In this document: positions 3,954-25,981 of the stretch, one piece after another
How positions within the stretch are numbered: position 1 is the first letter of the stretch
How the letters are laid out: every line of letters starts with the position of its first letter
Source: a virus
Lineage: Duplodnaviria; Caudoviricetes
Strand: one strand, 5' to 3'
DNA: 31,395 bases
IMG/VR virus record: IMGVR_UViG_3300045424_000079
Location: 1 to 31,395 of that record
The notes under the pieces: generated by a model
Database searches by the model: none
Seen by the model: only the letters and a program-made list of their open reading frames with translations
What the model was told of the DNA's origin: nothing
Made by a program: the position numbers and the translations under genes

Positions 3954-4038
3954 TAGCTAAGAGGAAAAAGCCTAGCCAGCTTTGATTTAGATTAAAACGT
4001 AAGTCAATATATATATTTATTTAATGGAGGTAATACAA

Positions 4039-4731
4039 ATGGCATCAGCCAAAAATATTCTAGTTGGAGCTTCTCCACTATTCTTGTCAGCACTTGATTC
4101 AACATCAGCAAACTACAAGGATGACATGGAGCCAGGTTCAACCGATGGTGTAAGCTTTGTTACAAAGAACCCAGCAGCAACACCAGCAGTACCAGCAACA
4201 GTACCATACGCAGACACACTTAACTTGGTAGCAAACCAAGCAAAGTGGAGAAACGTTGGATTCACAAATAACGGTCTTCAAATTACTTATAACCCATCAT
4301 ACGGTTCAGTAACAGTAGATCAGCTTCTTGACTCAGCAAAGCTTTTCAAAGAGTCAATGGAAGTTATGATTGCAACAGAGCTTGCAGAAGGTACTCTTGA
4401 GAACGTTCTTGCAGTATTCGGACAGGCTGGATCAGCAGCAACAACAGGAACAACAGACTCAAAGACATCTACAATTGGTCTAGAGGCAGGAGCTCTTGGT
4501 ATTGCACCAACAGAGCGTCAGCTAGTAGCAGTTGGACAGGCACCTACAGAAGGCGTAACAAAGGCAGAGCGTGTATATTATGCTCGTCGTGTTCTTTCTG
4601 TACAACAGTCACAGTTCTCACTATCACGTAACGCAGCAACAACATTCCCAGTAACCTTCCGTTTGCTTCCAGTAGAAGCAAAGCAAGGCAAGGAATACGG
4701 CGTTATTGTTGACCGTGTCCTAGTAGCATAA
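4039..4731 (+). CDS. Major tail (tube) protein
   Basis: ATG 4039 follows GGAGG (4026-4030). WRNVGFTNNGLQITYNP..V.VDQ...TELAEGTLEN matches siphovirus tube proteins. Followed by a terminator. Confidence 0.85.
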   Translation: MASAKNILVGASPLFLSALDSTSANYKDDMEPGSTDGVSFVTKNPAATPAVPATVPYADTLNLVANQAKWRNVGFTNNGLQITYNPSYGSVTVDQLLDSAKLFKESMEVMIATELAEGTLENVLAVFGQAGSAATTGTTDSKTSTIGLEAGALGIAPTERQLVAVGQAPTEGVTKAERVYYARRVLSVQQSQFSLSRNAATTFPVTFRLLPVEAKQGKEYGVIVDRVLVA

Positions 4732-4746
4732 TTAATTAATTTAATT

Positions 4747-4784
4747 AATAGAATGCCCCCTAAGAAATTAGGGGGTTTTCTATT
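4747..4784 (+). terminator. Intrinsic terminator after major tail gene
   Basis: AATAGAATGCCCCCTAA-GAAA-TTAGGGGGTTTTCTATT hairpin. Confidence 0.85.
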
Positions 4785-4811
4785 GCTCTTGTATTTTGGA
4801 TATGATACAAT
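4783..4811 (+). promoter_or_regulatory. Sigma70-type promoter with extended -10
   Basis: TTGCTC (4783-4788), 17 bp, TACAAT (4806-4811) preceded by TGn; GGAGGA RBS before TTG 4841. Confidence 0.65.
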
Positions 4812-4840
4812 AATTAAGACAAGATCCTAGGAGGATTAAA

Positions 4841-5173
4841 TTGGCAACTACAGTATACGACGTTGAAGAGATTCAACTACAAAATGGCGCAACAGTTAAA
4901 CTTAAGCCTTTAACAATTAAAGAGCTTCGCAAGTTTATGATAGTCATTCAAAAGACAGCAGAAGTAACATCAGAAGACGAAACACTAACAATTTTAATTG
5001 AAGCATGTGCAGTGGCTTTAGAAAAGCAGCTACCAGAGCTAGTTAAAGATATCGACGCATTTGAAGACACACTTGACGTTCCAACAATCAATCGCATTCT
5101 CGAAGTATGCGGAGGAATTAAGATGGACGACCCAAACCTTCTAGCGGCAACGGTACTGGCTGGGCAGAACTAG
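4841..5173 (+). CDS. Tail assembly chaperone (short form, gpG-like)
   Basis: 110 aa, TTG start with GGAGGA RBS, between MTP and TMP. Confidence 0.85.
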   Translation: MATTVYDVEEIQLQNGATVKLKPLTIKELRKFMIVIQKTAEVTSEDETLTILIEACAVALEKQLPELVKDIDAFEDTLDVPTINRILEVCGGIKMDDPNLLAATVLAGQN

Positions 5174-5505
5174 ATTTAGCCGCATTAGAAGGGGAAGTCT
5201 TTCTTCTAGGTAATTGGAAAAATTACGAAGAGTTAGAAGATAGTCTTTCAATGCCAGAGATGGTCCAGACCTTTAAATCAATGCAAAAAACTGAAGAAGA
5301 GAAAAGAAAATTCTTAGCTTTAATTCAGGGTGTTGAACTAAATGGAAGCAGTAATGAAAATGAGGAGGGATCAACCTTCGAAGATGTTAAAAGAAGAGCA
5401 CTTGGTATAAATGCATCAGCAGATGATGTTGTTTCATTACAAGGTGGTTTTGCAGCAGAAGCTGGATTTGGCATCGGAGCAGGATTAGGATACTCTATAG
5501 AGTAA
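4841..5505 (+). CDS. Tail assembly chaperone, -1 frameshifted long form (gpGT-like, about 221 aa)
   Basis: The -1 frame is open 5122-5505 (..PSSGNGTGWAELDLAALEGEVFLLGNWKNYEELEDSLSMPE..). Slippery C CCA AAC at 5131-5137 is in the correct register. Confidence 0.85.
5131..5137 (+). other. Programmed -1 ribosomal frameshift heptamer CCCAAAC
   Basis: X XXY YYZ in frame (GAC CCA AAC), between the -1 frame stop (5119-5121) and the 0-frame stop (5171-5173). Confidence 0.8.
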
Positions 5506-5514
5506 CATATATAT

Positions 5515-8500
5515 ATGGCAGATAATATAATAACGACCAATATTACCGCCCACGCAGACTTCACGAGCTTAAGAGCTCAACTAGCTGCGGTCACTGCCCA
5601 ACTCATAAAACTGCAAGAAACAACAGCGGGAACAAACGCAAAGCTAGCAAATCAAATTGCTGTAATGAACAAGTCGTTTGCAACAACGCTGACATCAACA
5701 GGACAGTTCTCGCAACACTTTGTATCCCTATCATCAGACGTAGACAAGTTCGGCAAGAACTTAGATAGAGGCCGTCTCAAGCTCAACGATTATTATAATG
5801 CTTGGAACGGCCATACAAGGAAAACAAGTACTTTAATTAGAGACCTGGCCAAGCAGCAAGTAATGCTTCAGCAAGCCATAGTTCAGCCTGTAGGCAAAAA
5901 TGCACAAGGACAAATGCAATATAATGTTATGGTTGCAAAAGGTCTTGATGAAATAAAGAATAAGATGGCTATTGCTAGACAAGAAGCTGCAATAATGAAC
6001 AAGGTAATGCTTGACGGATCAAACCAGCTTATTAACTGGGGTAAGAATACACAGTGGGCTGGTCGCCAACTAACAGTAGGATTAACAGTTCCTTTAGTTA
6101 TGTTTGGTTCGGCAGCACAAAAAGCATTTAGAGAAGCAGACGCAGAATTAGTAAGACTAACAAAAGTTTATGGTGGACTCGCAGCAACTTCATCTGCAGA
6201 CTTAGCACGAGTAAGAAAAGATGTCACCGACACAGCAAGAGAAATTGCTAGCTCTTATGGAGTTGCTTATAAAGAAACAATTGCGCTTGCCGCAGACTTA
6301 GCAGCAACTGGACAGCAAGGCAACGACTTGATAGCAGCAACACAACAAACAACAAGACTTGCAGTGCTTGGTGAAGTTGACAGACAAGATGCAATGAAAG
6401 CAACTCTTGCTATTCAAAATGCATTTAAGCAAAGTACAGACGAGCTCGCACAATCTATTGACTTCCTAAACGCAGTTGAAAACCAGACATCAACAAACCT
6501 TGCAGATTTAACTGAAGCTATTCCAAAAGCAGGACCCGTAATTAAATCTTTAGGTGGAGATGTAAAAGACTTAGCTCTTTATTTAACTGCGATGAAAGAA
6601 GGTGGAGTAAATGCTGCTGAAGGCGCAAACGCAATCAAATCAGCAATGGCATCACTTATTAATCCAACAAAAGTTGCAACAGAACAATTTGCAGGATTCG
6701 GAATTGATTTAAAAGGTATTGTGAATGACAATGCTGGAGACTTAACTGCAACAATATTAGAATTACAAGGAGCTCTAGATAAACTTAATCCGTTAGATAA
6801 GTCTAGAGCAATTGAGCAGCTATTTGGAAAATTCCAGTTTGCAAGAATGTCGGCCTTATTTGAAAACCTAGGAAAGTCTGGTTCACAGACACTTCAAGTT
6901 ATGGATTTAATGAAGGCAAGCGTGACAGACCTTGCAGCAATTTCAGAGCGAGAATTAAAGATGATGACAGAGTCAGCATCTGGGCAATTTAAAAGAGCCT
7001 GGGCCGCAGTTCAAGCAGATCTAGCTGCTGCTGGTGAGCAATTTTTAAGAATAAGTACAACGGTGTTAAAAGTTGTTGACTCAATAATAAGATTCTTCCA
7101 AAAGCTTCCTGAGCCAGTTAAAACATTATTGAATGTTTTAGGAGGATTTACAGCAATTGCTGGTCCTCTTATTATGTTGGCTGGTGTCATGGGCAACTTT
7201 ATTGGCTATGTCATCAAGGGAATATTTCATTTAAGACAACTAGCAAAAGGTGGACAAGGCTTCAAGTTACTAACACCAGAAATTATAGCCGCAGATGCAG
7301 CCGCTAAAGGTCTTGCAACATCATTCTACTCAGATACAGAAGCAACAATTGTTTTATCAAATGCGGTTAATACCCTAGCTGAATCATTTAAGAATTTAGA
7401 AATAAAAGCCAATGCAGCAAAAGTTTCCGTGCAGCCAGCAGTGTCAACAGTAGCAGGCGGAGTAATTATGGCAGCAGGGCCTGCTGGAAGAGTTGTAGAT
7501 AAAGATAACCCATTAGTTGGTAGACCATATTCAAGAGACATGTCGCATTTAATCCCATCTGGAAATCCACAAGATGGAACAATATTTGGAACTGTCCCAG
7601 GAGCAAAGCCAGTAAATATAAGAGTCGGTAGAAACCCACAGGCTTATATGGATGCCGATCTTCCAAAGATACCTGGACTGACATCAATAGGAGGAACATC
7701 CACAGGAATTGTTGCAGCAGAAGCTGCAAAATGGCATGCAATGACAGCAGCCATCTCCATGCAGTCAGAGGCAGAGCTTAAACTATTAAAGGCAGAAGTA
7801 ATGGCAACAGGAACCGTTACATCAAGCCTATCCGATTCCTATCAAGCATTATTGCCAGAGTTTAGCCAAATAACAGATCTTGCAGCAAAAGAAACTGCAG
7901 CAATCGTGCAGCAAGTTCAAGCAAGCAAGATAACAGTAGAACAAGCTAGAGCAAGAATTATTTCATTAAATGCAACGGTAGAAGCAATGCTTGCAGAAAC
8001 AACAAGACTAACTGCAGCAGGCATGGGCAGAACAGCAAATCTAACAACAGTCCCACTAACTTCTCAGCCAGTAGTAGATCCAGTTACAGGAAAATCTAAT
8101 ATGAAAGAAATGTTTCATAAAGGACCTACAAAAGCAATGGTTGATAGAATTGCAAGAGCTCTTGGCGGAGTAAGAACATCTGGTGCGGGATACAATATTG
8201 AAACAACAAAGCCAAAGTTTGCAAAGGGAGGCTTTGTTCCAGGAACTGGTAACACAGACACATATCACACTACAGCAGAGCCTGGCTCATTTGTAATTAA
8301 TAAAGCTGCAACCGAAAAACATCTTCCATTAATAACAAATATACTTGGAGGAAAATCTTATTATGCACAAGAAGGCGGACAGGTCCCAGTTGTATTAACC
8401 CCTGGAGAAGCCGTTATTCCAGCCAGCTTTGCTAAAAGGAATATGCCTTTAATGTATGAGTTAAATGGCGGACCTGGAAATACATCTGGAAGCGGAATGC

Positions 8501-11500
8501 ATGAAACTGGCGGAGAAACAGCTTTTGAAAGAAGTCACGTTTCCGAAGCATCAGCCGCTGACATTAAAAGAGTGCGGGCAACAAGAGGCTATGCTAATTC
8601 TGTAAGTGTCGGTAGAGGAATTCCAATTTGGATGAGCAGAGATGCAAATCAAGAAACTCGATCAGTTGGAAAGGGAATGACAGGCCCACAATTAGCAAAA
8701 GAATTTAGAAAAGCAATTGCAGCAGGAAGACACCCATTTGAACCATGGATGACTGCAGCTCAAGGTTTAGGCGGAGATCCAAGAAATAATACTCAATTTA
8801 ATAAAGTATTTAATGAAATGCTTAAAAATCTTGAAAAAGACACTAGAGTATTTGGTGGTAAAAATGGAGTAATGACATTTGAAAAATGGTTTGAAAAAGA
8901 AGTAATTGGATCGAAATCCTTTAAAGATATAAGGGTTGGAGATAGATCATTCAAATCAATATTTAATTCAGTTCTACAGCCTATGGGGCCAAGAGATGGA
9001 AAGCCTATTGCTGCATTAGAAACACTTGTTAAATCCAGAACTGGTTTAACTACAATTGAAAATTCAAAACTGGCTGGTCTTGCAAAAGGAATGCTAGGAA
9101 CATTTAGTGGAAGCTCATTTAACGCAAGCAGACAAAGACTTGCAATAATGATGTCAAGAGCATTTCTTAAAAGAAATTCAGGCGGCTCTATTCCTGGGGG
9201 AACTGTAGAAAGAGGAAGATACGGATATGGCAAGCCTTTCTTTGTTGGCATGCCAAGATCTATTAAACAAGTTGAAGCACAAAGAGCGGCAAGAACAGCA
9301 ATGGAAAGAGCAAGCACTGCTGTATCGGAATCAAGATTTGCAAAGAAGCCAGTAACTCAATATGGAGAACTATTGTCTCCGACCACAGGAAGAAGTTTTC
9401 CTGTAGCAGGAGTTGGGGGCCTATACATGAAGGGCGACGAAAAGGTATTCGTTAAGCCAGTGTTAGATGAAAGAGCAGCTTTGGCAGAAATGAGAGCAAC
9501 AGAAATTGCTCGTGATGTTCATGGCCTACATGCTCCAAAACAAAAAATTGTTGTTATGCAAGACCCTACTGATCCAACTGGTAAAAGAAAGCTATTGGCA
9601 CTTGAATCAAAATTTGATCCAAGCCTAGCAGCTACAGATGCAAAATTTACAACAGATCAATACTTTAGACAATTAGTTGCATCAGCATTACGTGGGGACA
9701 AAGATTTAGGAAAAGGCAATTTGTCTGGAAATGTTCTTTCAGATGTAGGCCCAGCTGGAGTATTCTCAGCAGCATCTGGGCTTAGAGGATACGCATCCAT
9801 GATGCCTTCAGTAAAAGAGCAGGCCTATATAAATCTATTAGGAAGAAAAGGCAGCGGGGCTAAGAAGTTCTTTGCTGAGTCAACCCACCAGATACCAAAA
9901 GGAATGACAGCCGATGAATATCATAATCGTATGCTTAAAGAAATTGAGAGTGCTTTACCAAAGCTTAAGCAAACGGTTTCAAGATTTGATTTAAACCCAG
10001 AAGAAAAAGTTGTTTATGAAGCAATGATTAAAAGACTTTCTGATGCAAGAGGTGTTAACTGGAAAGAGCTTCATGGAATTCACTCTGGCTTACAAATTTC
10101 ACCAGAAAAACAAATGACACCAGCGGCCATAGCAAAGATGGTTGCAGCAGATGAACTAAAGCGTAGACAGTCTGGTCACTCAGCAAGTCTTTCAGACAAT
10201 GCCTTTAAGACTGATGCAAATGGATTCTGGCTTGGTGGCATGGTTCCAGATGCATCTGGTGGAGATAAGGCCTTAATGCAAGGAGATATGTTCCAGCATG
10301 ATGTATTAAGACCAGGGTTTAGATTTGGTGGATTGCTTGAAGCATTAACAAAAGGCAAAGCAATGCATAAAATTGGTGCAGGATTTGGAAAAGATTCTAC
10401 TGGCGGATGGGGAGTAACATCCTTACAAATAGGAATGGCTGAAAAGCTTTTTGGGTCTACTGGACTAACAAAGAGAACACAAAAAATTCTTTATGATAAA
10501 TTTGCAGCGCAGCTTGCTAAAGAAATGCCATATGGATATTCAAAGAATGCACAAGGGCATTTAATAAAAGCATTAGAGCCAGACGTTATGGACTCTGTAA
10601 TAAGATCAGCAGCCTCATCTACCCTGTCAGCACCAGAGGGAAGAAAAGTGCTTTCTACAATAGATAGAGAAATTCTTAGAAAGAAGTTTGCAAACTGGGA
10701 GTCTAAAAAAGATACACCTCTAACAGAAACTTTGAAGCAGTTAGTATTTGGAATAGAAAAAAGAGAAATGGGCGGACCAGTTAATGCTGGGCAGCCATAC
10801 ATTGTTGGAGAAAAAGGACCAGAGCTATTTGTTCCAAGAAATGCTGGTGGGATAGTTCCAAACGGATATGCAACTGGTGGCAAAATTATAAATGGCTATA
10901 ATGCTGGTGGCATTGTAGCAATGCTAAAACAATTAGCACTAATCATAGGTTTAAGCGAAGGAGCCAAGTTTGCTGGCAATAAGGTTGGTGGAACTCCTGG
11001 AGACATGTTGTCTATGGTTGGTCAATTCTTACCTTTCTTAATAATGGGTAACGCAATGCCAAAGGGTGGTGGCAAAGGAATTGGAAACATGTTCCCTAAA
11101 GCTACAAAGCCTATTGGAGCAGCTAAAGCAGTTGAAGGTGTTTTTGTTAACGGAAAGCCTTTAATGAATGCAACAAAGTATGGAACACAGCTAGATAAAC
11201 TAACTAAAAGCTCTAATATTTTTTCTAAAACATTAGGAATGTCATTAAAGATGTTTACAAGATTCAATCTTGCTCTTGGAACACTTGCAGTTGGTGGGCA
11301 GTACGCATGGAAAAAATGGCAACAGCATAACGAGGCTCTAAGATTAAATGCATTAGGATATGGAATGACAGCTGAAGCTGCCTCAAAAGCAGGACTTAAG
11401 TTTACAAACTTTAATGATAAAATTAAAGAAGCAATCAACAATGCAAAAGCATTAAGAGAAAAAAATACTCTTCTCTATGAAAGCATGAAGGGGTCTGGCA

Positions 11501-14500
11501 CTCCATTAAAAATTACAATTGAAGAATACAAGAAATTAAAAAAAGAAGTTAAAGAAAATTATTCTGATCAAGTAGCTCTTATTAATCAAACAGGCAACAA
11601 CTCAGAAAAACAAAAAGCTTTAGCAATAAGGCTCAAAGAACAATTAATTGCTATGGGAATGTCTGCTGAAGATGCTGCTAAAAAGATATACACAATGTAT
11701 GCAGCCTCAGACTTTGCTCCCAATGCAGCCGCGTGGACAGTTAGATCACAAGGATTCAGAGATATTAAAGATACTGCCTCAGCTGCAGCTCAAGCAATAG
11801 AAGATTTAACTACTGCAATGGAAACTAATCGTGATGCAACTGAGCAGGCCAACCAGCTAAATACAGCAATGATGGCTTTATCTACGGACGTAGAATCTAG
11901 ACAAGCAAAAGCATTAAAAGAAGCACGAAAGCAAGCCAATAAAGATGGCACTTATCTTTCAACGGGCGATGAAAAACAAATAATGCTTGATCAAGAGCAA
12001 GCGGCTATTGATGCAATTAATGCTAAAGTAGAAAATCAAGTATATTTGACTAAAGAAGTTGTAGACGAAATGGCCAAGATAGATCCAGCCATTAGACAAA
12101 TTGTTAATGAGCAGGATACCGCTTTGTCTTTATGGCAAAAAACAAGAATTCAAGTTAAGGGATATACTGGAGATCTTAGATCGCTTAATGCCCAACAGAC
12201 AAACGACTTATACAAATTACAAATAGCGTTAGGCAAATCAATAGAGGCTGCAAACAGAGCACCTGGGGGAGCGCTAGAAAAGCAGTATAAAGAATTAGAT
12301 AAAAATAAAAAACTACAAGCCGCTTATGAAAAAGCAGCAAGAGGACAGTCAGTTGCACAGCAAATATCAGATAGAGATAAGATAGCATCTCTGCAAAAAC
12401 AAATAGATGCCAATAATAAATTAACCGAGTCAAGACTTAAGGCATTGGATGCTGCAAAGCAAGAGGGGGATATTGCTAGAGAAATTGCAAAGAAGCAGGC
12501 AGAGTATGATGCAGCGCTTGCAACTGGCAACATAGCTGGAGCACAACAAGCAAGCCTAGATATTCAGGGTTACCAAAGCGACCTTCAATATAATGCTCAA
12601 AAGAAATCTCTTGAAGATTCAAACATACTTCAGAACCTACCACTACAAAAATTAATTGAAGCAATTCAAGGAAAGCAACAAGGTATATCTGATAAGGCAG
12701 CACTTGCGTCCGAAAAATTAGGAGATCTTTCTACAACAATTACTAAACAAGAAACTGCAATTAGCGATGTAAATAGCGCAATGCTAAACTGGGAGATTGA
12801 ATTATTAAAACAACCAGAAGCAGAAAGAGCAAAATGGAAAGCAAGCAAGCAATCTGAAACAATGCTTGCTGCTGTTGCAGATGCTGCAAAAGCGGCAGGA
12901 ATTAAACTTAACGGATTAAAGGATCTTGATTTTGCCAAGGGTCTTGTTGAGGGAATTGATAAGAAGCTTGGAGCAGTTAGCACAATAGGTATTGATGGAA
13001 ATGTTACTATAGTCCTTGCAAATGGGCAGCAGTTAAATATAGGTAATGGACGAGGCAATGGAACAAAAGATACTCCATTTGATTTAGGAAAAGTTGGAGA
13101 AGGAACAAATACTATATCTGGTGCAACCGTAGCAAACTGGGGACATTCGGTACTAGATAAGGGACCACTTGGAATTAGTCAACAGCTCAAGGGGCTTGCA
13201 CATGAAAAAGGTATTCTTCCTGGACAGTTCTTCTCAGTAACAGATAAAGATGGGAAAGTTTCTGTCTTTAAAATGCGAGATGATGGAGGCTTGACTAGAC
13301 AAAATAATCCATACAAAAAAGCAGATGGTGGACATATTGTAGGAGCTGGAACAGCGACATCTGACTCTATCCCAGCATATCTTTCAAATGGTGAATATGT
13401 AATTAAAGCAGATTCTGTAAAGAAATATGGAGTAGACCATTTCGATGCACTAAATGCTGGTAAGTATGCACAAGGCGGTTTAATAAATTCAGGCCCTCAA
13501 TCTGAGCACAAGAGCTCATTTGGAAATGGGTCTACAAATGTAAATGTAAATATGCAGGGCGGAAAGTTAATGGGCCCAATAGAGGCATGGCAAGAAGCTA
13601 ATAAACAAGTTGTTAAAATTGAAGTTCCTCCAATTACCGCTAATTTTGCTACCAACTCTTATGTGTTGAATAAAGAACAAAGACTAGAGCTTCAAAAGAT
13701 TGCTTCGGATCTTCTTAAGCATAAACTAGACTCACTAGTTGTTGAAGGACATACAGATTCAGTAGGAAAAGGAAAAGACAATAAGATCCTTTCACAAAAT
13801 AGAGCAAAGGCAATTGCAGAGTACCTGTCAAAATTTGTTCCTGGCACAGGATTCATCCCAGTAGGATATGGAGAGTATAGACCACTTGTTCCAAATTCAA
13901 ATGCTGAAAATAAGGCTAAGAACAGAAGAGCAGAACTAATTCTCCCAGATAAATACAAAACAATTTATCCAGAGTACAAGCCTGAAAAACATGAGTACAT
14001 GTTAAGTAAGGGCCGCATTGAAGGCAGCGGAGCGATCCTTAGCACAAATGGCCAGCTAATTGGCACAAATGGAACACTGACTAGTGGCGGATCAATGCAG
14101 TCAGCCATAAACTGGGGCAAGCTATTTAAGAAAGTCAAGAAAGCTATTGGCTTCCATACAGGCGGACCAGTAGGTCATCGTCACGGAAGAAACTTACCAA
14201 AGACTAAACCATCTCCTACACCATCTCCTACAAACAGGTATATGACAGTAGAGGAACACCGCCAGCTGCAGGGAATGAATCTTGAAAACAATGGAAGCGC
14301 TTCTAAGCCAAATGGCAATGCTTCAGGTATGCAGCCTGGGGATAAATGGAATAATAGACATATAACACAATCAGTTGGAAAATGGCTCATTAATAGCATG
14401 AATCCAGTAGCTCCAATTACTAATATGTTGCCAAAAAACATAAGAGATTCTATGGCAAATCCAGCGTACTCAGTATTTGGGCAGCCATTTGAAGAAATAA

Positions 14501-17500
14501 TAGCAGGAAGCCCAACCAAGGGAGACTGGTTAAATGCAGCCTTAACTTTTATTCCATTTGGAAAAATTGGATCAGGGATAAAAGCAATCCCTAAAACACT
14601 AAAAACAATTAAGCAAATTCCTACAGCAATTAAAGTTGGAAGTAAGCTAAAAGCTGGTAATTTTGATGACCTAATAAATATAGGAAAGTCTACAGCAGGA
14701 AAGTCAAGGCCGTCTATAATGAAGGCTGCTGATGGATCTGTACATTACATGAAGATTATGCAGGATGTAATGGAAGGTGCATTTGAAGTAACTGGTTCCA
14801 CAATAGCTAAAAGATTTAAAATGCCAAGTACTGACAACATCTTGGGCACTTGGAAGAACTTGTCTGTCATATTAAGTAAAGATTTTGCATCAAAGGGAAT
14901 GAAAACGCTAGAAGATGCTGGTGCAATGTTGCCACACGGATTCCTTGACATGGATTGGCTTAAAGCTAATGCTTCAATGAAAAGCTTTGGAAAGATGAGA
15001 GCAGTCTCATCCATACTAGGGCACGGAGACATGCATCCAGGCAACCTACTGCTTAAGGGCAAAAAAACTCTTGGAGCATTTGACTGGGGAATTATAGATA
15101 ATTTGACTAACCCAGCTGAAACAGCGTGGAAAGCGGGCAGCACCCTAGTTGGAAAACAAGCTTCTCAATTTACTAAAGGCTTCTCTTCTGTAAGAAAGTC
15201 AATAGCTAAGCAAGGCCCAGAGAAATTCATAGATGATATTTTAACTAAGAGCGGAATTACTGACGAAGGACAGTTGAAGGTTCTACGTATAGTACTTGAA
15301 AGAAATGTAAAGTCTTTATTAGATTTGAATATTCCTGGCAGATTCCATAAGGGCGGAGCAGTAGGACATAGACATGGAAGATCTCTTCCAAAAAAGAAAA
15401 ATTGGTTTCAAAACTATGTCTCTGATTTAACTCAAAGCCAAGATGAAGCACAAAAACTTCTTTCTAAATCTCCACTTACTTCATGGATGAGTGCAGATCC
15501 TCTTGGAGCAAAATCTATTTTTAGAAATATTGCTGGTCAGGGTAGGAGTGGTGATACTTTAAACTCAATACTTTTCCCTTTAAACTTCCTTGGAATGGGG
15601 TCTGCTAAAGGTGCGGTAGTTAAGCCAGTGGGTAGTATGCTAGGAAAAATTACAAAGCCGCTAACCAGTATGCTATCAAGAATAAAAGATTCAAGGTCTG
15701 TTGTAAAAATAAAGTATCCATTAGATGTTGCTGCACCGTCTGCAAAAATGCTAGGATCAGCAGCACTAAGAGCCGCACAACAGACACCTCAAGGCATAAC
15801 AAATCTTTTAAGATCTGGATTATGGAAGACATTTGGTGCAACAAAATTAGGACAAAAAGCGCTATACAAAATACCTAAAATTGCTGGGTTTAGACCCTAC
15901 AGTCCAATGGGCATTGGATCTGTATTTAAAAATACATCTGATTATGTTAGAAGAACTGGTAAGAGTTTTTTTGATGATATTACAAATCGACCACATTCTG
16001 CCCCATCTCGTACTGGTGCTCCAACTGGAGCCAAGGCTTGGGATGATTGGGCAGACTATAGCAAGATTGGAAAAACAAATCCGCAAGAAGCTTTTGGTGA
16101 GCTTTTTGGGCTACTATCTAATTTAACTAAATCAGTAGCCCTAAAACCTATCGTTAAAATTGGCACCAAGGCAAAATCAAAAATAACTTCTAGTATTGAT
16201 GCTAAAAGAAACTCATTAAAATTCTTTAAACAATTTATAGTTCCATCAAAATCTTCATTTAATCCAAAACAAGCAATATCAAATTTCCTGTATAGATACA
16301 CTCCATACGGATCAATGAAAGCTAAGACATTATTAAAGACAGGAGAAAGAGAAGGAAGTTGGTCCCCTTCAGCAGTTGATCCAAGCTCAGGACCAGAAAT
16401 GTTTGAAACACTTAAACAACTAGCAATGCGCCCATTTTATCATGGTGGTATTATGCCAGAAACGCTTATAAATAGATCAACACCTGGTGTTCTAGGAAAT
16501 CCAGTAGATGACCTATTTGCAGCTAAGCATAGCATGTTTGGAAATCTATTTGATTTTGATTTGTTCACTACAGCTTCAAAAGGAATGTCTGCTTCATATT
16601 CAAAAACTAAAAATACTGTAAATGTATTTAGTGAAGAAGCAGGAAACATATATGAAATGTTTTTCAAAAAACTTGCTGGAAAGAGGACTCTAGATTTACG
16701 TGGCGGAGAAAAATCAATTTGGTCTCAAAACAAAAGAGCTTATGCCGCTCTAGAAGCGTTTTTAGCTAAAGCTCATGGAATTGAAACTGCAAGATTGATG
16801 TTAGCAGGAGAAAGAATTCCTGGCAAGGCATTCAGCTCACTTGGTAGAGCAAGAGACAGTTTCTTGCAGGGAGAAAATCTAAGGCTGGCCTTTACTAAGC
16901 TAGGTCCAAGAGGATTTAAATACATTATTGATACTCTTGTACACGAAGGCGGCAGAAATACAAATTCTGTATCGCATCCAGTTATAGCATCACTAGCTCC
17001 TCAAAGAGTGGTTAGTGGATTTAAAAAAATATTAGATGGAACAGATCTAGGATTTTTTGATTCTTTAAATTTAAATAAAGTAAACTTTTCTAGAGTTACA
17101 TCTGAATTAGAAAAAACACTAACAGAAATTGTTACAAGAAGTGTTGATCAAAAAGACAAGCTTGGTAAAGTTCTGCCATTCTTAAAGGCAGGGCATTTTG
17201 CAAACGGTGGGATAGCTGGATCTAGATACAATATACCTAAATTTGAAACTGGAATAAATAGCGTACCAGCCGACATGCTTGCAATGCTTCATAAGAATGA
17301 AGCCGTTGTTCCTGCAAATATGAACCCCTTTAATCCAAACGCTAATAATGCTACAATGGGTGGAGCAACATATAATATTACAAATAATATTAATGGATTC
17401 GATGGGGACATAAATCAATTGTCAAATATAGTAACACAAAAGACTATTACAGCAATAAAGACTCTTGATTCCCGCAATTCTAAAATGACTGGTTCATCAA

Positions 17501-17520
17501 TGACCGTAGGAGTTAAATAA
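5515..17520 (+). CDS. Giant tape measure protein (4001 aa) with multiple embedded cargo domains
   Basis: Follows the frameshifted chaperone. N-terminal TP901-like TMP core (WAGRQLTVGLTVP...FLNAVENQT), hydrophobic segments and Ala-rich coiled coils. Internal kinase, OmpA-like and ART-like motifs. Confidence 0.92.
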   Translation: MADNIITTNITAHADFTSLRAQLAAVTAQLIKLQETTAGTNAKLANQIAVMNKSFATTLTSTGQFSQHFVSLSSDVDKFGKNLDRGRLKLNDYYNAWNGHTRKTSTLIRDLAKQQVMLQQAIVQPVGKNAQGQMQYNVMVAKGLDEIKNKMAIARQEAAIMNKVMLDGSNQLINWGKNTQWAGRQLTVGLTVPLVMFGSAAQKAFREADAELVRLTKVYGGLAATSSADLARVRKDVTDTAREIASSYGVAYKETIALAADLAATGQQGNDLIAATQQTTRLAVLGEVDRQDAMKATLAIQNAFKQSTDELAQSIDFLNAVENQTSTNLADLTEAIPKAGPVIKSLGGDVKDLALYLTAMKEGGVNAAEGANAIKSAMASLINPTKVATEQFAGFGIDLKGIVNDNAGDLTATILELQGALDKLNPLDKSRAIEQLFGKFQFARMSALFENLGKSGSQTLQVMDLMKASVTDLAAISERELKMMTESASGQFKRAWAAVQADLAAAGEQFLRISTTVLKVVDSIIRFFQKLPEPVKTLLNVLGGFTAIAGPLIMLAGVMGNFIGYVIKGIFHLRQLAKGGQGFKLLTPEIIAADAAAKGLATSFYSDTEATIVLSNAVNTLAESFKNLEIKANAAKVSVQPAVSTVAGGVIMAAGPAGRVVDKDNPLVGRPYSRDMSHLIPSGNPQDGTIFGTVPGAKPVNIRVGRNPQAYMDADLPKIPGLTSIGGTSTGIVAAEAAKWHAMTAAISMQSEAELKLLKAEVMATGTVTSSLSDSYQALLPEFSQITDLAAKETAAIVQQVQASKITVEQARARIISLNATVEAMLAETTRLTAAGMGRTANLTTVPLTSQPVVDPVTGKSNMKEMFHKGPTKAMVDRIARALGGVRTSGAGYNIETTKPKFAKGGFVPGTGNTDTYHTTAEPGSFVINKAATEKHLPLITNILGGKSYYAQEGGQVPVVLTPGEAVIPASFAKRNMPLMYELNGGPGNTSGSGMHETGGETAFERSHVSEASAADIKRVRATRGYANSVSVGRGIPIWMSRDANQETRSVGKGMTGPQLAKEFRKAIAAGRHPFEPWMTAAQGLGGDPRNNTQFNKVFNEMLKNLEKDTRVFGGKNGVMTFEKWFEKEVIGSKSFKDIRVGDRSFKSIFNSVLQPMGPRDGKPIAALETLVKSRTGLTTIENSKLAGLAKGMLGTFSGSSFNASRQRLAIMMSRAFLKRNSGGSIPGGTVERGRYGYGKPFFVGMPRSIKQVEAQRAARTAMERASTAVSESRFAKKPVTQYGELLSPTTGRSFPVAGVGGLYMKGDEKVFVKPVLDERAALAEMRATEIARDVHGLHAPKQKIVVMQDPTDPTGKRKLLALESKFDPSLAATDAKFTTDQYFRQLVASALRGDKDLGKGNLSGNVLSDVGPAGVFSAASGLRGYASMMPSVKEQAYINLLGRKGSGAKKFFAESTHQIPKGMTADEYHNRMLKEIESALPKLKQTVSRFDLNPEEKVVYEAMIKRLSDARGVNWKELHGIHSGLQISPEKQMTPAAIAKMVAADELKRRQSGHSASLSDNAFKTDANGFWLGGMVPDASGGDKALMQGDMFQHDVLRPGFRFGGLLEALTKGKAMHKIGAGFGKDSTGGWGVTSLQIGMAEKLFGSTGLTKRTQKILYDKFAAQLAKEMPYGYSKNAQGHLIKALEPDVMDSVIRSAASSTLSAPEGRKVLSTIDREILRKKFANWESKKDTPLTETLKQLVFGIEKREMGGPVNAGQPYIVGEKGPELFVPRNAGGIVPNGYATGGKIINGYNAGGIVAMLKQLALIIGLSEGAKFAGNKVGGTPGDMLSMVGQFLPFLIMGNAMPKGGGKGIGNMFPKATKPIGAAKAVEGVFVNGKPLMNATKYGTQLDKLTKSSNIFSKTLGMSLKMFTRFNLALGTLAVGGQYAWKKWQQHNEALRLNALGYGMTAEAASKAGLKFTNFNDKIKEAINNAKALREKNTLLYESMKGSGTPLKITIEEYKKLKKEVKENYSDQVALINQTGNNSEKQKALAIRLKEQLIAMGMSAEDAAKKIYTMYAASDFAPNAAAWTVRSQGFRDIKDTASAAAQAIEDLTTAMETNRDATEQANQLNTAMMALSTDVESRQAKALKEARKQANKDGTYLSTGDEKQIMLDQEQAAIDAINAKVENQVYLTKEVVDEMAKIDPAIRQIVNEQDTALSLWQKTRIQVKGYTGDLRSLNAQQTNDLYKLQIALGKSIEAANRAPGGALEKQYKELDKNKKLQAAYEKAARGQSVAQQISDRDKIASLQKQIDANNKLTESRLKALDAAKQEGDIAREIAKKQAEYDAALATGNIAGAQQASLDIQGYQSDLQYNAQKKSLEDSNILQNLPLQKLIEAIQGKQQGISDKAALASEKLGDLSTTITKQETAISDVNSAMLNWEIELLKQPEAERAKWKASKQSETMLAAVADAAKAAGIKLNGLKDLDFAKGLVEGIDKKLGAVSTIGIDGNVTIVLANGQQLNIGNGRGNGTKDTPFDLGKVGEGTNTISGATVANWGHSVLDKGPLGISQQLKGLAHEKGILPGQFFSVTDKDGKVSVFKMRDDGGLTRQNNPYKKADGGHIVGAGTATSDSIPAYLSNGEYVIKADSVKKYGVDHFDALNAGKYAQGGLINSGPQSEHKSSFGNGSTNVNVNMQGGKLMGPIEAWQEANKQVVKIEVPPITANFATNSYVLNKEQRLELQKIASDLLKHKLDSLVVEGHTDSVGKGKDNKILSQNRAKAIAEYLSKFVPGTGFIPVGYGEYRPLVPNSNAENKAKNRRAELILPDKYKTIYPEYKPEKHEYMLSKGRIEGSGAILSTNGQLIGTNGTLTSGGSMQSAINWGKLFKKVKKAIGFHTGGPVGHRHGRNLPKTKPSPTPSPTNRYMTVEEHRQLQGMNLENNGSASKPNGNASGMQPGDKWNNRHITQSVGKWLINSMNPVAPITNMLPKNIRDSMANPAYSVFGQPFEEIIAGSPTKGDWLNAALTFIPFGKIGSGIKAIPKTLKTIKQIPTAIKVGSKLKAGNFDDLINIGKSTAGKSRPSIMKAADGSVHYMKIMQDVMEGAFEVTGSTIAKRFKMPSTDNILGTWKNLSVILSKDFASKGMKTLEDAGAMLPHGFLDMDWLKANASMKSFGKMRAVSSILGHGDMHPGNLLLKGKKTLGAFDWGIIDNLTNPAETAWKAGSTLVGKQASQFTKGFSSVRKSIAKQGPEKFIDDILTKSGITDEGQLKVLRIVLERNVKSLLDLNIPGRFHKGGAVGHRHGRSLPKKKNWFQNYVSDLTQSQDEAQKLLSKSPLTSWMSADPLGAKSIFRNIAGQGRSGDTLNSILFPLNFLGMGSAKGAVVKPVGSMLGKITKPLTSMLSRIKDSRSVVKIKYPLDVAAPSAKMLGSAALRAAQQTPQGITNLLRSGLWKTFGATKLGQKALYKIPKIAGFRPYSPMGIGSVFKNTSDYVRRTGKSFFDDITNRPHSAPSRTGAPTGAKAWDDWADYSKIGKTNPQEAFGELFGLLSNLTKSVALKPIVKIGTKAKSKITSSIDAKRNSLKFFKQFIVPSKSSFNPKQAISNFLYRYTPYGSMKAKTLLKTGEREGSWSPSAVDPSSGPEMFETLKQLAMRPFYHGGIMPETLINRSTPGVLGNPVDDLFAAKHSMFGNLFDFDLFTTASKGMSASYSKTKNTVNVFSEEAGNIYEMFFKKLAGKRTLDLRGGEKSIWSQNKRAYAALEAFLAKAHGIETARLMLAGERIPGKAFSSLGRARDSFLQGENLRLAFTKLGPRGFKYIIDTLVHEGGRNTNSVSHPVIASLAPQRVVSGFKKILDGTDLGFFDSLNLNKVNFSRVTSELEKTLTEIVTRSVDQKDKLGKVLPFLKAGHFANGGIAGSRYNIPKFETGINSVPADMLAMLHKNEAVVPANMNPFNPNANNATMGGATYNITNNINGFDGDINQLSNIVTQKTITAIKTLDSRNSKMTGSSMTVGVK
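9367..10100 (+). other. HipA/PI3-4-kinase-like domain 1 inside TMP
   Basis: Gly loop GVGGLY, VFVK (K 9454), alphaC Glu (9487), LALESKF, catalytic-like DKDLGKGN (9697-9720), DVG (9742). Confidence 0.6.
13633..13944 (+). other. OmpA-like C-terminal (peptidoglycan-binding) domain inside TMP
   Basis: Full signature F..NS..L...VEGHTDSVG...N..LS.NRA.AI..YL...GYGE.RP..PN......NRRAEL. Confidence 0.92.
14152..15393 (+). repeat. Two copies of a 17-codon cassette header FHxGGxVGHRHGRxLPK (14152-14202 and 15343-15393)
   Basis: 14/17 aa and 38/51 nt identical by direct comparison. Confidence 0.9.
14680..15330 (+). other. HipA/PI3-4-kinase-like domain 2 inside TMP
   Basis: GKSRP, HYMK (K 14752), Glu (14785), ILSKDF, canonical DMHPGN (15028-15045), DWG (15082). 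Confidence 0.8.
16435..17013 (+). other. ADP-ribosyltransferase-like domain (ART-PolyVal-like) inside TMP
   Basis: FYHG...LFTTASKGMSASYS...GNIYE...TLDL...DTLVHEGG...HPVIASLAP, matching the YHG / YTT....A..Y / G.IY / D.I.H.GG..H.V...P pattern. Confidence 0.55.
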
Positions 17521-18209
17521 TGGCAGTTCTAGCATTACCAATTGGGGCCCTAATATCATTTGAAAATACTGCAGTTACTCCTGTAGTTTGGCAGGCACTG
17601 AGTGAGCACAATAGAGCAAGTGCCACCCTAGATGTACAAAGAATTGAAAAAACTCAAAGAATGTCAAATGGAACATTAAGAAAGATATTCATTACTGATA
17701 AGCAAATGCTATCTGTAAGCTGGTCAGCACTACCAAGCTATTCTAGTATGACAGTAGATGGCAACTGGGGAGCAATGGACATTAAAGATTTTTATACTGG
17801 CGCATCGGGTCAGGGCACAGTCAAGGTAAAGATTTCACCAAATGGATCGGCTGAAAAAGAAAAAACAATGATAATGTCATTTACCTCATGTAGTTTTACG
17901 GTAACAAAAAGAAATGTAAGGATTGGTGGAGTGTTTAAAAATTCAAGCATAACTGCCATATCGTATGCGGCTGGAGTAACAACATATACAGGTAAAAATA
18001 GTTTTGCGGTTGGAAATAAAGTTAAGGTATCAGGAGCGACATTTGCAGCGTATAATGGAGTATTTACTGTAACAGCAGCAACATCAACATCATTTACTGT
18101 TGCAGGAACTATAGCTGGAACACCTGCCTCATCTACAGCATCCGCCATCACAGTTCTGCCAGATGCACAAGAATTCTGGGATGTATCTATAGCACTGGAA
18201 GAAGTTTAA
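17520..18209 (+). CDS. Distal tail (Dit-like) protein with inserted beta-rich domain
   Basis: First gene after the TMP (TAATG overlap). RMSNGTLRK...SVSWSALP and terminal WDVSIALEEV are Dit-like. Thr/Ala-rich insert at about 17922-18167. Confidence 0.65.
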   Translation: MAVLALPIGALISFENTAVTPVVWQALSEHNRASATLDVQRIEKTQRMSNGTLRKIFITDKQMLSVSWSALPSYSSMTVDGNWGAMDIKDFYTGASGQGTVKVKISPNGSAEKEKTMIMSFTSCSFTVTKRNVRIGGVFKNSSITAISYAAGVTTYTGKNSFAVGNKVKVSGATFAAYNGVFTVTAATSTSFTVAGTIAGTPASSTASAITVLPDAQEFWDVSIALEEV

Positions 18210-23014: not shown

Positions 23015-25981
23015 ATGAGACCATATGATATTGACGGTGGTGGAGGCATACCAGCAGATCTAGAGATAGATCCAGCTGCTGCCGCAGCCTCTGCTTCTTC
23101 AACATCAGCAAACTCATATACAAAAGTTGTAAAGATGGTGCCTGTTGTTGGAAAGACATATAAGTTTTGGTTTACATACCTATATGAAGATCCAGAAACC
23201 AAACAAGTAACGGAAAGTGCAAACTCTCCTATTTTTTCAACCTCATTTACAATTCCCAACGGCACCAAACCAGTAAAGAATTTAGTTTTAACTTCTGGCA
23301 TCAAATCATATGGAGTTAAGTTTGACGTTGATCCAGACAGCGTACAGACTGATATTATAATATACGAGAGTCTTACTGGAGCATTTACTGGCGAAGAGTA
23401 CATAGTTTATACTGGAACCTCAACAAATATAACTGTGCAGGTGGATAGCTTTGCTCCAAGATGGGTAAAGGTTACAGTCAGAGATAACTGGCTAGATGCA
23501 AATAGATCTTCTGTTACAGCTGGCCCAGTCAATATTTTAGCAAATGACCCAGATACTTCAACTCCCCCAAAAGCACCAACTGGCGTTTCTGTTAGTGGAG
23601 TAATTGATCCAGAAGATAAAAGTGGATTCAGCATACAAATGGATGTTTCTTGGACCGCAAGCACTGATTCTAATACAAACGGATATGTAATAAGATGGTC
23701 TGCAAACGATCCATCAACTACTCTAAACCCATTGTGGGAATACGGTCAAGTAGACGGCAGAGCAACAAACAAATTTTCCATAACAGGCCTAACCCCCAAT
23801 ACAGTTTATTATTGGCAGGTTACAGCAAAAAGCCCTTTCAATGCAATCTCTTGGGATAAATCGGTAACTGGTCAAGTTGCTTCTGGTCAGTTTGGCCCGA
23901 TATCAGATCCAAATGCCCCAGCGGGAAACATTCAATTAAGATCTATCATATCTATTGGAGGTAAGCTGGCGGACTTATTTAAAATAGGAACTGGAATAAC
24001 GCAGTCAATTAATACATCTACAACAATAACCCCTTCATTAGTTTCTGGAACATATAATGGAATTATTTTAGATAGATCAACAACAAACTACGGCCATAAT
24101 TATTGGTTAAACACTGGCCAGTTTAGAGTAGGAAGTGCGTCAGCATTTTTTTATTGGGATGGATCTGATGTATATACAACAGGAAAAATAAATGCAACTG
24201 GTGGATCATTTACGGGAGACGTTAGATTAAATGGCGGAACTTTATATACTGGCCCAACCCCTTTAGCTGGTGCAAGAGTTAGATTTGATAGCGCAGGTTT
24301 GTTTGGATACGACGCAACAAGTACAAGTAATACAACTGGACAAACTTTTGCATTAACGGCAGCAGACGGAAAAATTGATGCACGTCTCGGGTTTATTGGT
24401 GGATGGACAATTCAGGGCACTTCTCAAACAGTAGGAACTATTTCAAAAAATGGCACCATACTTGGTAGCGATGGAAGCATAGTTTTAGGAGACACGACAG
24501 GAACGCTTCCATCAATTGTTAAATTAAGCTCTACCGATCCAACATATAGAATTTGGGTGGGAAGCCAATTAGCAACCAATGCTAAATTTAAAGTTGGAGT
24601 AGATGGAGTTGTTTATGCAAATGGCGCAGTTATAGATGGCAACGCTTCATTTAGTGGAACTTTAACGATAGGCACAAAGTTATCTGACGGAACAACATTA
24701 GATCAAACTAGAGCAAATGCACTATCAGCTATTGGTTCGGCCAGCGCAGCAGCAGATAAAGCAGAGATAGCAAGATTAAAGGGTATTGAAGCTTATGATA
24801 AAGCAGTCGCTGCAGGCGAAAGCGCAGCAGCTGCAGCAGAAGCAGCCAGGGTTGCAAAAGAAGCAGCTGATCTTAAGATGGCCTCAGCGGACATAAATAC
24901 TGTCTTGGCTTACAACACCACAATAATTAATGGAAATAGAATTACAACTGGAACAATTGACGTGGCACGTCTAAACATTACAGGTGGAACAGCTGGAGTA
25001 AACGGATTTGTTGTAGATGGAAATGGAATCCGTGCGTATAACGCATCCACTCAAACTTTAAACATAGCGTCAGACGGAACTGTCTCTCTTGGAGATAGTA
25101 GCTTTGGCTGGACGGTGGACCGACGATACATCACATCAAGAAATATATTTACGGCAGGGTACACAAAATTAGTTTTAGATGGATATGATGGGTCTATCAC
25201 AGGTGGAAGAATTTCTGGTACATCAATTGAAGGAAATACAATCACTGGTAATACAATAACAGGCGGAACAATTATTGGAAGCAGGGTTCAAACAAGCTCA
25301 TCCACAACAAGAGTAGAGCTAAGAGACGTGGCCTCACCAGGAACAGACTCTTTAAGAGCTCTTATTTCAGGAGTTACTGTCGGGCATGTATTTGGATATG
25401 GCACTTCAACAAATGGCGGAATGGTTATGATGTCAGGGTCTACAGCAAATCCAGATACAACTTCTGGGCACGTCAGAGTGTTGCCAAACTATGCAGTGCT
25501 GGCTGGAGATAGCCTGAATTATTTTGAGGCAAATGGCACATCCAATAATATTAACTTAAGAGGGCAGACTATATATGCTGGTCCTGGAAAAATGTTTTAC
25601 AGTTTTGCAACCGTAAGTACCACAGCTCCAAACTTTAGAATTGATTCGGATGGCGGAATGTCAAGGACGTCAGGCTCCACGATTAGAATTAAAGAGGATG
25701 TTGTAGACCTACTATCACTACCAAGCTTAGACCCATCACCACTATATAGCTTGCCAGTTAGAGCTTTTAAGTTTAAAAAAGATATAATTGGTCCAGAAGA
25801 TCAGAGGTACGACAAGATGGTTCCAGGTTTTATTGCCGAAGAAGTTGCAGAAATTTATCCTGCTGGAGTAGACATAGGGGATGACGGTCTACCTGAAAAC
25901 TGGAACTTTAGAGTTATTGTTCCTGCAATGCTATCTTTAATTCAAGATTTAAATCAAAGAGTTAAAGAATTAGAAGGATAG
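23015..25981 (+). CDS. Tail fibre / receptor-binding protein with FN3 domain and C-terminal S74 intramolecular chaperone
   Basis: FN3 motif (VSWTAS..GYVIRW..ITGLTPNTVYYWQVTA, about 23564-23833), Gly-rich beta repeats, Ala-rich coil (about 24710-24890), S74-like STIRIKEDV...GFIAEEV...LIQDLNQRVKELE (25676-25981). Confidence 0.85.
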   Translation: MRPYDIDGGGGIPADLEIDPAAAAASASSTSANSYTKVVKMVPVVGKTYKFWFTYLYEDPETKQVTESANSPIFSTSFTIPNGTKPVKNLVLTSGIKSYGVKFDVDPDSVQTDIIIYESLTGAFTGEEYIVYTGTSTNITVQVDSFAPRWVKVTVRDNWLDANRSSVTAGPVNILANDPDTSTPPKAPTGVSVSGVIDPEDKSGFSIQMDVSWTASTDSNTNGYVIRWSANDPSTTLNPLWEYGQVDGRATNKFSITGLTPNTVYYWQVTAKSPFNAISWDKSVTGQVASGQFGPISDPNAPAGNIQLRSIISIGGKLADLFKIGTGITQSINTSTTITPSLVSGTYNGIILDRSTTNYGHNYWLNTGQFRVGSASAFFYWDGSDVYTTGKINATGGSFTGDVRLNGGTLYTGPTPLAGARVRFDSAGLFGYDATSTSNTTGQTFALTAADGKIDARLGFIGGWTIQGTSQTVGTISKNGTILGSDGSIVLGDTTGTLPSIVKLSSTDPTYRIWVGSQLATNAKFKVGVDGVVYANGAVIDGNASFSGTLTIGTKLSDGTTLDQTRANALSAIGSASAAADKAEIARLKGIEAYDKAVAAGESAAAAAEAARVAKEAADLKMASADINTVLAYNTTIINGNRITTGTIDVARLNITGGTAGVNGFVVDGNGIRAYNASTQTLNIASDGTVSLGDSSFGWTVDRRYITSRNIFTAGYTKLVLDGYDGSITGGRISGTSIEGNTITGNTITGGTIIGSRVQTSSSTTRVELRDVASPGTDSLRALISGVTVGHVFGYGTSTNGGMVMMSGSTANPDTTSGHVRVLPNYAVLAGDSLNYFEANGTSNNINLRGQTIYAGPGKMFYSFATVSTTAPNFRIDSDGGMSRTSGSTIRIKEDVVDLLSLPSLDPSPLYSLPVRAFKFKKDIIGPEDQRYDKMVPGFIAEEVAEIYPAGVDIGDDGLPENWNFRVIVPAMLSLIQDLNQRVKELEG

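Follow-up and report, generated by a model that had tools for sequence, protein, structure and literature searches.

Exchangeable cassettes in two arrays of a 4001-residue tape measure protein suggest a preloaded delivery chain in a freshwater siphovirus

The IMG/VR record IMGVR_UViG_3300045424_000079, analyzed here over its full 31,395 nt (the window), belongs to an uncultured freshwater phage and carries head-tail, tail, and replication genes on the plus strand. One of its open reading frames (ORFs) encodes a 4001-aa protein that is a true siphovirus tape measure protein (TMP) and holds two arrays of cassettes: an internal array with a putative nuclease (in a position called slot 1), an atypical kinase (kinase 1), and a helical cassette (u1), and a C-terminal array with an OmpA-like domain, a second kinase (kinase 2), a basic region, and a fold like that of ADP-ribosyltransferases (ARTs) (Table 1). 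Comparison of related sequences indicates that these cassettes are exchanged at Gly-Gly linkers, have passed between distant TMPs, and evolve under purifying selection. New here is the observation that the internal array is flanked by two hydrophobic zones across related TMPs (81 of 92). We favor, as moderately probable, the reading that a TMP with two such swappable arrays is a preloaded delivery chain, ejected at infection, whose enzymes would reach the envelope and the cytoplasm before phage gene expression.

A first-pass annotation made from the sequence alone had called this ORF a 4001-aa TMP, and that call holds. The ORF is intact and matches Pfam PF10145 at aa 239-438 (E 1e-27), TIGR01760 at aa 192-548 (E 7e-32), and PHROG 10030 (E 2e-115), and it stands in the gene order tail-tube-like gene, two small ORFs, TMP, 229-aa ORF, minor tail gene. 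Cysteine is absent from all 4001 residues; 86 of 92 related TMPs also lack it, cargo included, with 28 Cys in 296,679 residues across the set. Because several other virion ORFs are likewise Cys-free, the absence of Cys and the net basic charge of the TMP are weak signs.

Cassette exchange was examined among relatives found by IMG/VR scans with the N-terminus (best 80 of 477 stretches) and with the second scaffold (56 loci). The comparison set held 87 complete ORFs of 2,497-4,265 aa, 46 of them distinct, which are close kin and not independent samples. Residues 1-650 are 76-97% identical in all 46 complete relatives, and alignment of the relatives' TMPs showed what had been anticipated, namely, that cassettes swap while the scaffold is conserved. 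Helical ruler regions alternating with the cassettes had also been proposed: an Ala/Lys/Glu-rich, Pro-poor composition, clearest at aa 1-500 and 1900-2500, is consistent with them, but the second scaffold varies in its turn, with relatives at 25-93% identity. Six relatives with 95-97% identity in aa 1-650 have at least 5 different arrays after OmpA, and two of the six closest relatives carry another slot-1 cassette. Kinase 1 recurs in 40 of the 46 complete relatives, the slot-1 domain of this TMP and OmpA in six each, kinase 2 and the ART-like cassette in three each, and the basic region in one. P0002 is 71% identical to this TMP over aa 1-650 and 25% over the second scaffold, versus 78% over the basic region and 88% over the ART-like cassette; this scaffold divergence together with cargo similarity points to lateral transfer. 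Homology breakpoints (binned) fell within 25 aa of a GG motif in 9 of 11 cases, against a background in which a fraction of 0.40 of positions lies within 60 aa, although part of this proximity follows from the method itself, since homology ends at conserved motifs. A 93-nt deletion in another sample runs exactly from GG motif to GG motif.

Every cassette gave a dN/dS of 0.02-0.21 (Nei-Gojobori, pairs above 68% identity), with 0.03-0.21 for the slot-1 cassette. These values bear on the alternative that the inserts are neutral filler that merely lengthens the tail, or that the ORF is an assembly chimera, which we regard as highly improbable and largely refuted. The family is microdiverse and mosaic, and no contig spans the whole TMP gene in the four runs examined, as an artifact would have it. 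Runs X5 and X7, both from one river study, have little or no cover at ∼8470-10200. From each of these two runs came a 7,606-nt contig over 11078-18000, gap-free and with 170 differences; run X12, from another study, gave one contig over 8389-11414; and IMG/VR locus L002 has an identical domain order from start to end. We rejected a chimera, which the first-pass annotation had named as a danger to its claim, on the gap-free independent contig and the order in L002, and neutral filler on the dN/dS values and the invariance of catalytic residues.

In the internal array, the kinase placed earlier at 9367-10100 was borne out by a predicted fold and by its catalytic residues. An AlphaFold model made from an alignment of 42 sequences (pLDDT mostly 70-95 over the domain) matched CotH at a VIA Z of 12.3 (rmsd 3.9, 213 residues aligned, helical C-lobe included), followed by HipA, MavQ, PI4K II, and CtkA (Z 10.1-10.3); Foldseek returned CtkA and HipA at probabilities of 0.98-0.99, with E above 0.001. 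The five residues listed in Table 1 are conserved at 96-100% in 139 sequences. At the sequence level kinase 1 had no family match (Pfam; PDB profile search), and PDB sequence searches with profiles of kinase 1, kinase 2, ART, slot 1, and the R-S-E cassette described below gave nothing useful. Kinase 1 is predicted from its model to fold like CotH, HipA, and PI4K with catalytic residues intact. It shares the fold (Z 10-12) and the K-E-D-N-D set with the CotH, HipA, CtkA, and PI4K kinases at 11-14% identity but, unlike them, is found almost only inside giant TMPs. Its relatives form 166 clusters at 50% identity, the TMP N-terminus was present in 110 of 153 kinase 1 proteins retrieved (most others being fragments), and kinase 1 occurred in 0 of 50,697 GenBank phage records.

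The slot-1 cassette had been annotated as a nuclease at 8521-9170. Its His...Asn motif stands, in a pattern common to 21 slot-1 cassettes hand-picked by eye, but slot-1 cassettes found no Pfam or PDB match and the model lent no support, leaving the putative nuclease unconfirmed, as a motif-level lead. In the structure search on the shared model, kinase rows filled the list, so that the slot-1 domain and u1 were barely probed; u1 had no family match in Pfam or PHROGs. The segments left without assignment by the first-pass annotation, 10333-10760 (u1) and 15600-16430 (the basic region), are real and conserved and gained no assignment. Five relatives (L033:13916-14809; also L034, L036, L103, and L105) have, in place of kinase 1 and u1, a cassette whose R...S-x-S...E-x-E pattern suggests an R-S-E ART as a motif lead (Pfam E 0.073).

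The C-terminal array includes the OmpA-like domain, whose earlier placement at 13633-13944 is certain by family match (PF00691, E 2e-17, 63.8 bits versus a cut-off of 27.2; NCBIfam matches too); D2748 and R2804/2805, which we take to be the binding Asp and Arg, are present. For kinase 2, annotated at 14680-15330, the motifs HGDMHPGN and FDWG are intact, but family matches were weak and all below the Pfam cut-off (ABC1 2e-4, APH 9e-4, HipA_2 0.11). In the ESM Atlas, 23 of 30 named neighbors fell in HipA_2 clusters (score 0.94), HipA_2 covering 14-21% of members in the top two clusters, and an assignment of kinase 2 as HipA-like is supported at this level. The kinase 1 profile missed kinase 2, and no stand-alone homologue of kinase 2 was seen among 324 candidates of 130-415 aa. 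Before both kinase 2 and the ART-like cassette stands a GGxVGHRH motif with a hydrophobic helix, a probable leader; the first of these, l1, presumably resembles pre-toxin helices and had no Pfam match. The basic region was modeled at low pLDDT with no credible fold, only short helical hairpins being matched.

The ART-like call at 16435-17013 is supported as to fold; the cassette lacks a canonical catalytic Glu/Asp. With a model from 18 sequences, all of the top 23 VIA rows were ART-fold proteins (Z 4.4-6.6; best rmsd 3.9 over 141 aligned residues), the leading matches, NatT, ParT, and the diphtheria catalytic domain, being tied. Among viral models in BFVD the best match was a polyvalent protein (E 2e-4), and a PolyVal ART reached a probability of 0.84. 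Checked against an H-Y-D triad, H3643 and Y3695 are invariant, F3684 lies in strand 2, and by alignment reading His3821 sits at the Asp position. Pfam gave no match, and the ESM Atlas gave unnamed clusters at low recognition. The structural matches support an ART fold, a split beta-sheet at middling Z, that lacks the canonical catalytic acid. The module that closes the protein is predicted to be a tail-tip plug by analogy with JBD30, T5, lambda, and Douge. The ART model also matched residues 1419-1645 of PDB 9k3a_B, a cyanophage A4 pre-ejectosome protein (Z 6.1); the paper on that structure does not mention ADP-ribosylation (PMC12002296), and this ejected protein may hold an unrecognized ART-fold domain.

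Such cargo could instead be a Trojan horse or contact weapon whose toxins act on nonpermissive neighboring bacteria or on protists that graze on virions or infected cells. In their variable C-terminal modules and hydrophobic leaders these TMPs are reminiscent of polymorphic toxins. Eukaryote-targeting toxins are among the ART fold matches, and a Trojan horse role has been proposed for ART genes of freshwater actinophages (PMC6802176). We give this alternative little credence: inspection of ORFs downstream revealed no immunity-like gene between the TMP stop and the probable distal tail gene, TMP release happens on host-receptor binding, the top ART match is the bacterial NAD+-consuming toxin NatT (tied with several others), and no receptor-binding or translocation subunit was seen.

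Predicted topology separates the two arrays. Among 92 TMPs in which the N-terminus is intact and kinase 1 is present, scanned at a Kyte-Doolittle (KD) cut-off of 1.5, a hydrophobic window occurred at aa 400-600 in 90, at aa 600-1200 in none, and at aa 1400-2000 in many; only 2 of 92 had a window between aa 600 and the end of the kinase, and kinase 1 sits between two hydrophobic zones in 81. With an odd number of membrane crossings per zone the internal array would face the cytoplasm, into which it would loop, and kinase 2 and the ART-like cassette, in the C-terminal array, would need another way in. Pfam scans of cargo across the family covered 45 proteins, most of which gave the TMP core only. 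The wall modules so found (two M23, CHAP, LysM, and NlpC) all lie beyond aa 2190, and three HAD phosphatases and a cytidylyltransferase-like nucleotidyltransferase lie at aa 730-1615. The first-pass proposal, that enzymes for host takeover or anti-defense are injected from the tail lumen, would need refinement: OmpA here and M23, CHAP, LysM, and NlpC in relatives are envelope modules, so not all cargo would be cytoplasmic.

These same features could suit enzymes of the entry site, cassettes that remain bound to the channel and whose action is confined to the nearby envelope, where kinase 1 would open or stabilize the DNA conduit, rather than disarm the cell, by phosphorylating a membrane protein or lipids of the phosphatidylinositol type. 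Kinase 1 scores as well with PI4K II and MavQ (Z 10.3) as with HipA; it has hydrophobic zones on both sides and is nearly constant (40/46), as expected of an entry factor; OmpA and the wall hydrolases are envelope modules; and phosphatidylinositol is present in actinobacterial membranes. This account leaves the ART fold, the hypervariable His...Asn slot, and the HAD and nucleotidyltransferase cassettes unexplained, and the exchange of kinase 1 and u1 for the R-S-E-like cassette in five relatives is not what a mechanical entry function would lead one to expect. We consider it unlikely.

Several side observations concern this wider cargo. HAD IIIB phosphatase cassettes lie in the internal array of P0039, P0074, and P0088 (aa 1030-1615), and in that of P0120 aa 730-859 form a cytidylyltransferase-like (HIGH-type) domain (E 5e-6) that, judged by its family, could be an NAD-synthesis counter-defense enzyme. 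HExxH occurs in 9 of 106 large proteins versus 0.55 in shuffles. Large C-terminal cassettes of 740-890 aa (L084:14129-16636, L085:13946-16432, and L039:17429-20083) had no Pfam match, and those of L084 and L039 contain HExxH.

The non-scaffold parts of the TMP are punctuated by short xxGGxV motifs, and a long form, GG...D-x-PA...GE (the hook motif), occurs in 1-5 copies in each of 106 large proteins. A profile of the hook motif matched the Douge TMP twice (E 3e-26) and the JBD30 TMP at aa 1019-1060 (E 1e-8), and it found no match in lambda gpH or T5 pb2 at E up to 10; the link to lambda and T5 therefore rests on JBD30 and on published work. In JBD30, a "hook" predicted at residues 1022-1066 adjoins a site where cleavage has been speculated to occur (PMC11445458). 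Cleavage of lambda gpH falls in a Gly-rich region and proceeds by an unknown route, and the protein forms a trans-envelope channel (PMC12617516); T5 pb2 is cut after R1127, the freed muralytic peptidase staying in the tail (PMC10038345). The delivery reading draws support from these cases: in both lambda and T5 the TMP is ejected, builds a channel, and undergoes cleavage close to a Gly-rich region of this kind (PMC12617516, PMC10038345).

Cleavage of gpH and pb2 during assembly (PMC12617516, PMC10038345), like the repetition of the hook motif 1-5 times per TMP, would also fit a producer-cell polyprotein, in which cassettes are cut out at hook motifs as the tail is built and act late or are packaged separately, the TMP gene being merely a well-expressed carrier. 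Tail length bears on this point. Over the whole chain, length per residue comes to 0.155-0.159 nm for Douge (TMP of 1699 aa with two hook motifs, 269.6-nm tube; PMC13033339) and JBD30 (1158 aa, 180 nm), which by arithmetic implies a tail of ∼620-635 nm if all 4001 residues count and ∼270 nm for the scaffolds alone. A 630-nm tail would be unusual, since most tails measure 50-200 nm, and it is feasible, since that of P74-26 reaches nearly 1 μm (PMC10034513). Excision of its internal array would leave the ruler in two pieces. In T5 and lambda the tail retains the part that is cut, and the lengths of Douge and JBD30 fit the whole chain; with P74-26 as precedent for a very long tail, the producer-cell account seems to us rather improbable.

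The host is likely a freshwater actinobacterium, because WhiB, an actinoviral hallmark (10.1101/655167), is encoded in 5 of 5 complete relatives (115-120 kb) and all 20 runs listed with the 3' part of the TMP gene are from freshwater, river, or lake. Two matches of kinase 1 in metagenome-assembled genomes, labeled Bifidobacterium and Acidimicrobiaceae, may stem from phage contigs binned in error, and the host assignment leaves them aside. A sheath family was found in 0 of 3 complete relatives checked.

As we envisage delivery, the tail tube would hold the whole chain as a trimer or hexamer, threaded through it in a largely unfolded state. The C-terminal array would exit first, with OmpA (or M23, CHAP, LysM, or NlpC in relatives) gripping or opening peptidoglycan. 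The two hydrophobic zones would then insert in the membrane and form a channel for DNA, and the putative nuclease, kinase 1, and u1, which make up the internal array between the zones, would loop into the cytoplasm and refold. Kinase 2 and the ART-like cassette, each behind a short hydrophobic leader, would be freed at hook motifs and would cross or act at the membrane. By phosphorylation or ADP-ribosylation of host proteins, loss of NAD+, or cleavage of nucleic acid, the enzymes might disarm defense or take over the cell. Kinase 1 would be the near-constant core effector, with slot 1 and the C-terminal array as arms-race positions. A broader picture is offered tentatively: in widespread freshwater actinobacterial siphoviruses the TMP may be a modular, noncontractile injection magazine within a 400-700 nm tail, holding recombination-shuffled kinases, ARTs, nucleases, phosphatases, peptidases, and wall enzymes that are divided by position between a loop in the cytoplasm and an array meeting the envelope first, with release at the repeated hook motifs and tail length growing with effector number.

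Several points weigh against delivery, besides the expected closeness of breakpoints to conserved motifs. Packaging, injection, activity, and targets are inferred from sequence and models, and only 3-6 copies per virion would be delivered. Zone 2 in this protein reaches KD 1.44, below the 1.5 cut-off, and kinase 1 lies in the C-terminal array in 2 of 92 TMPs (P0106 aa 2219-2469 and P0142 aa 2867-3113). Kinase 2 and the ART-like cassette, dependent on ATP and NAD+, lie C-terminally, outside the cytoplasm under a two-zone topology, and their crossing is an added assumption. As to the cassettes themselves, kinase 1 is as close to the lipid kinases PI4K and MavQ (Z 10.3) as to HipA, so its target may be a lipid or a protein; the ART fold has His where Glu/Asp is expected and a Z of only 4.4-6.6; and the nuclease motif region has pLDDT below 50 without database support. 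Pfam was above cut-off in 0 of 28 cassettes from relatives, most cargo being without a family, and PHROGs on 22 segments gave nothing useful.

Among known systems, phage polyvalent proteins likewise combine unrelated enzymes in one polypeptide and are proposed to be injected with DNA (Iyer et al. 2017, PMC5512222). The mix is similar, with two kinases, an ART fold, and OmpA here and zincin-, HAD-, and GNAT-like patterns in relatives (the last in P0003, with a regex count not above chance, 1 versus 0.5), and polyvalent ARTs are the nearest viral models to the ART-like cassette, which lacks their strand-5 Asp. The carrier differs, being a tail ruler here; "tape" occurs 0 times in the main text of PMC5512222. 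The polyvalent kinase is truncated, without a C-terminal subdomain, whereas kinase 1 keeps a full C-lobe, and the MPTase and LPD domains of polyvalent proteins were not found by Pfam in this TMP, HExxH occurring in the 9 relatives noted above, where it fits no assigned family. T5 pb2, lambda gpH, Douge gp16, and JBD30 gp46 belong to the same TMP class with C-terminal wall-acting modules, and Douge and JBD30 share the hook motif. This TMP is 2.4-4.7 times longer than those of Douge, JBD30, and lambda and, unlike the T5, lambda, Douge, and JBD30 TMPs, has ATP- and NAD-using folds, a second array between hydrophobic zones, and inter-phage cassette exchange.

Polymorphic toxins of the MuF, Rhs, and LXG types combine a conserved delivery trunk with exchangeable C-terminal enzymes, as here. 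To our knowledge, ready-made phage enzymes that are injected use the head route (T4 Alt and polyvalent proteins), and TMP cargo is muralytic. T4 Alt is a ready-made ART delivered at injection that modifies the host (PMC5512222), as we infer for the present cargo, but it is a single R-S-E enzyme carried in the head, in contrast to a His-type ART fold within a tail ruler that holds other enzymes as well. Toxins of extracellular contractile injection systems (eCIS) travel in the tube lumen (PMC8718954), like the proposed TMP cargo. Unlike polymorphic toxins and eCIS, the present system lacks a downstream immunity gene, strings several cassettes in tandem, ends in a conserved structural C-terminus behind the cargo, and would travel in an infectious virion. 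We found no description of kinase or ART cargo in TMPs in the literature, subscription papers being mostly excluded. If the delivery reading is true, an abundant freshwater phage family (477 related IMG/VR stretches; 166 kinase clusters) would use a tail-lumen delivery route, and tail length would be tied to armament. The cassettes would amount to a library of selected domains without family assignment, with likely anti-host functions; the repeated hook motif offers a handle on how TMPs are cleaved, and the arrangement suggests a natural way of loading protein cargo into siphovirus tails.

Table 1. Features of the TMP gene and its immediate neighbors in the window
Feature	Position	Strand	Basis
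Probable tail tube gene and two probable tail assembly chaperone ORFs	4024..5505	+	position and size
Tape measure protein, whole ORF	5515..17520	+	4001 aa, internal stops 0
N-terminal scaffold with TMP core domain, aa 1-899	5515..8211	+	PF10145, TIGR01760
Hydrophobic zone 1, aa 537-560, predicted membrane-spanning	7123..7194	+	Kyte-Doolittle 1.94 (aa 541)
Double GG...D-x-PA...GE linker (hook) motif G1	8212..8472	+	sequence; profile matches Douge and JBD30 TMPs
Slot-1 cassette, putative His-Me finger nuclease (H1008, N1045), hypervariable slot	8506..9171	+	motif by eye
Kinase 1, CotH/HipA/PI4K-like atypical kinase (K1314, E1325, D1397, N1402, D1410)	9340..10119	+	predicted fold and catalytic residues
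u1, helical cassette, usually adjoins kinase 1	10318..10761	+	41/46 relatives; dN/dS 0.04-0.16
Linker G2 and hydrophobic zone 2, aa ~1796-1850	10762..11064	+	KD 1.44, weaker in this protein
Second scaffold, aa 1800-2598, predicted helical	10912..13308	+	composition
Full hook motif G3, start of C-terminal array	13309..13473	+	sequence and profile
OmpA-like peptidoglycan-binding domain, aa 2711-2804	13645..13926	+	GHTD and NRR motifs
Leader l1: GGxVGHRH motif, variable spacer, hydrophobic helix, 5' of kinase 2	14152..14649	+	sequence
Kinase 2, HipA_2-like (K3080, E3091, D3172, N3177, D3190)	14662..15339	+	motifs, weak family matches
Leader l2 and basic region, usually 5' of ART	15343..16419	+	45 K+R vs 16 D+E, aa 3362-3635
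ART-fold cassette	16420..17154	+	invariant H3643, Y3695, D3806, H3810, H3821
C-terminal module with degenerate hook motif	17182..17517	+	76-89% identity in six closest relatives
Probable distal tail protein	17520..18209	+	abuts TMP stop; position

In the surrounding tail genes, the two small acidic ORFs at 4841-5505, in the interval between the tube gene and the TMP, resemble a chaperone pair in which a frameshift site was not identified, and the ORF starting at 17520 is also present in relatives with other cargo. Farther downstream, an ORF at 23015-25981 had no PHROG or NCBIfam match; it encodes a 988-aa probable tail fiber-like protein with an Ala/Lys-rich helical stretch.

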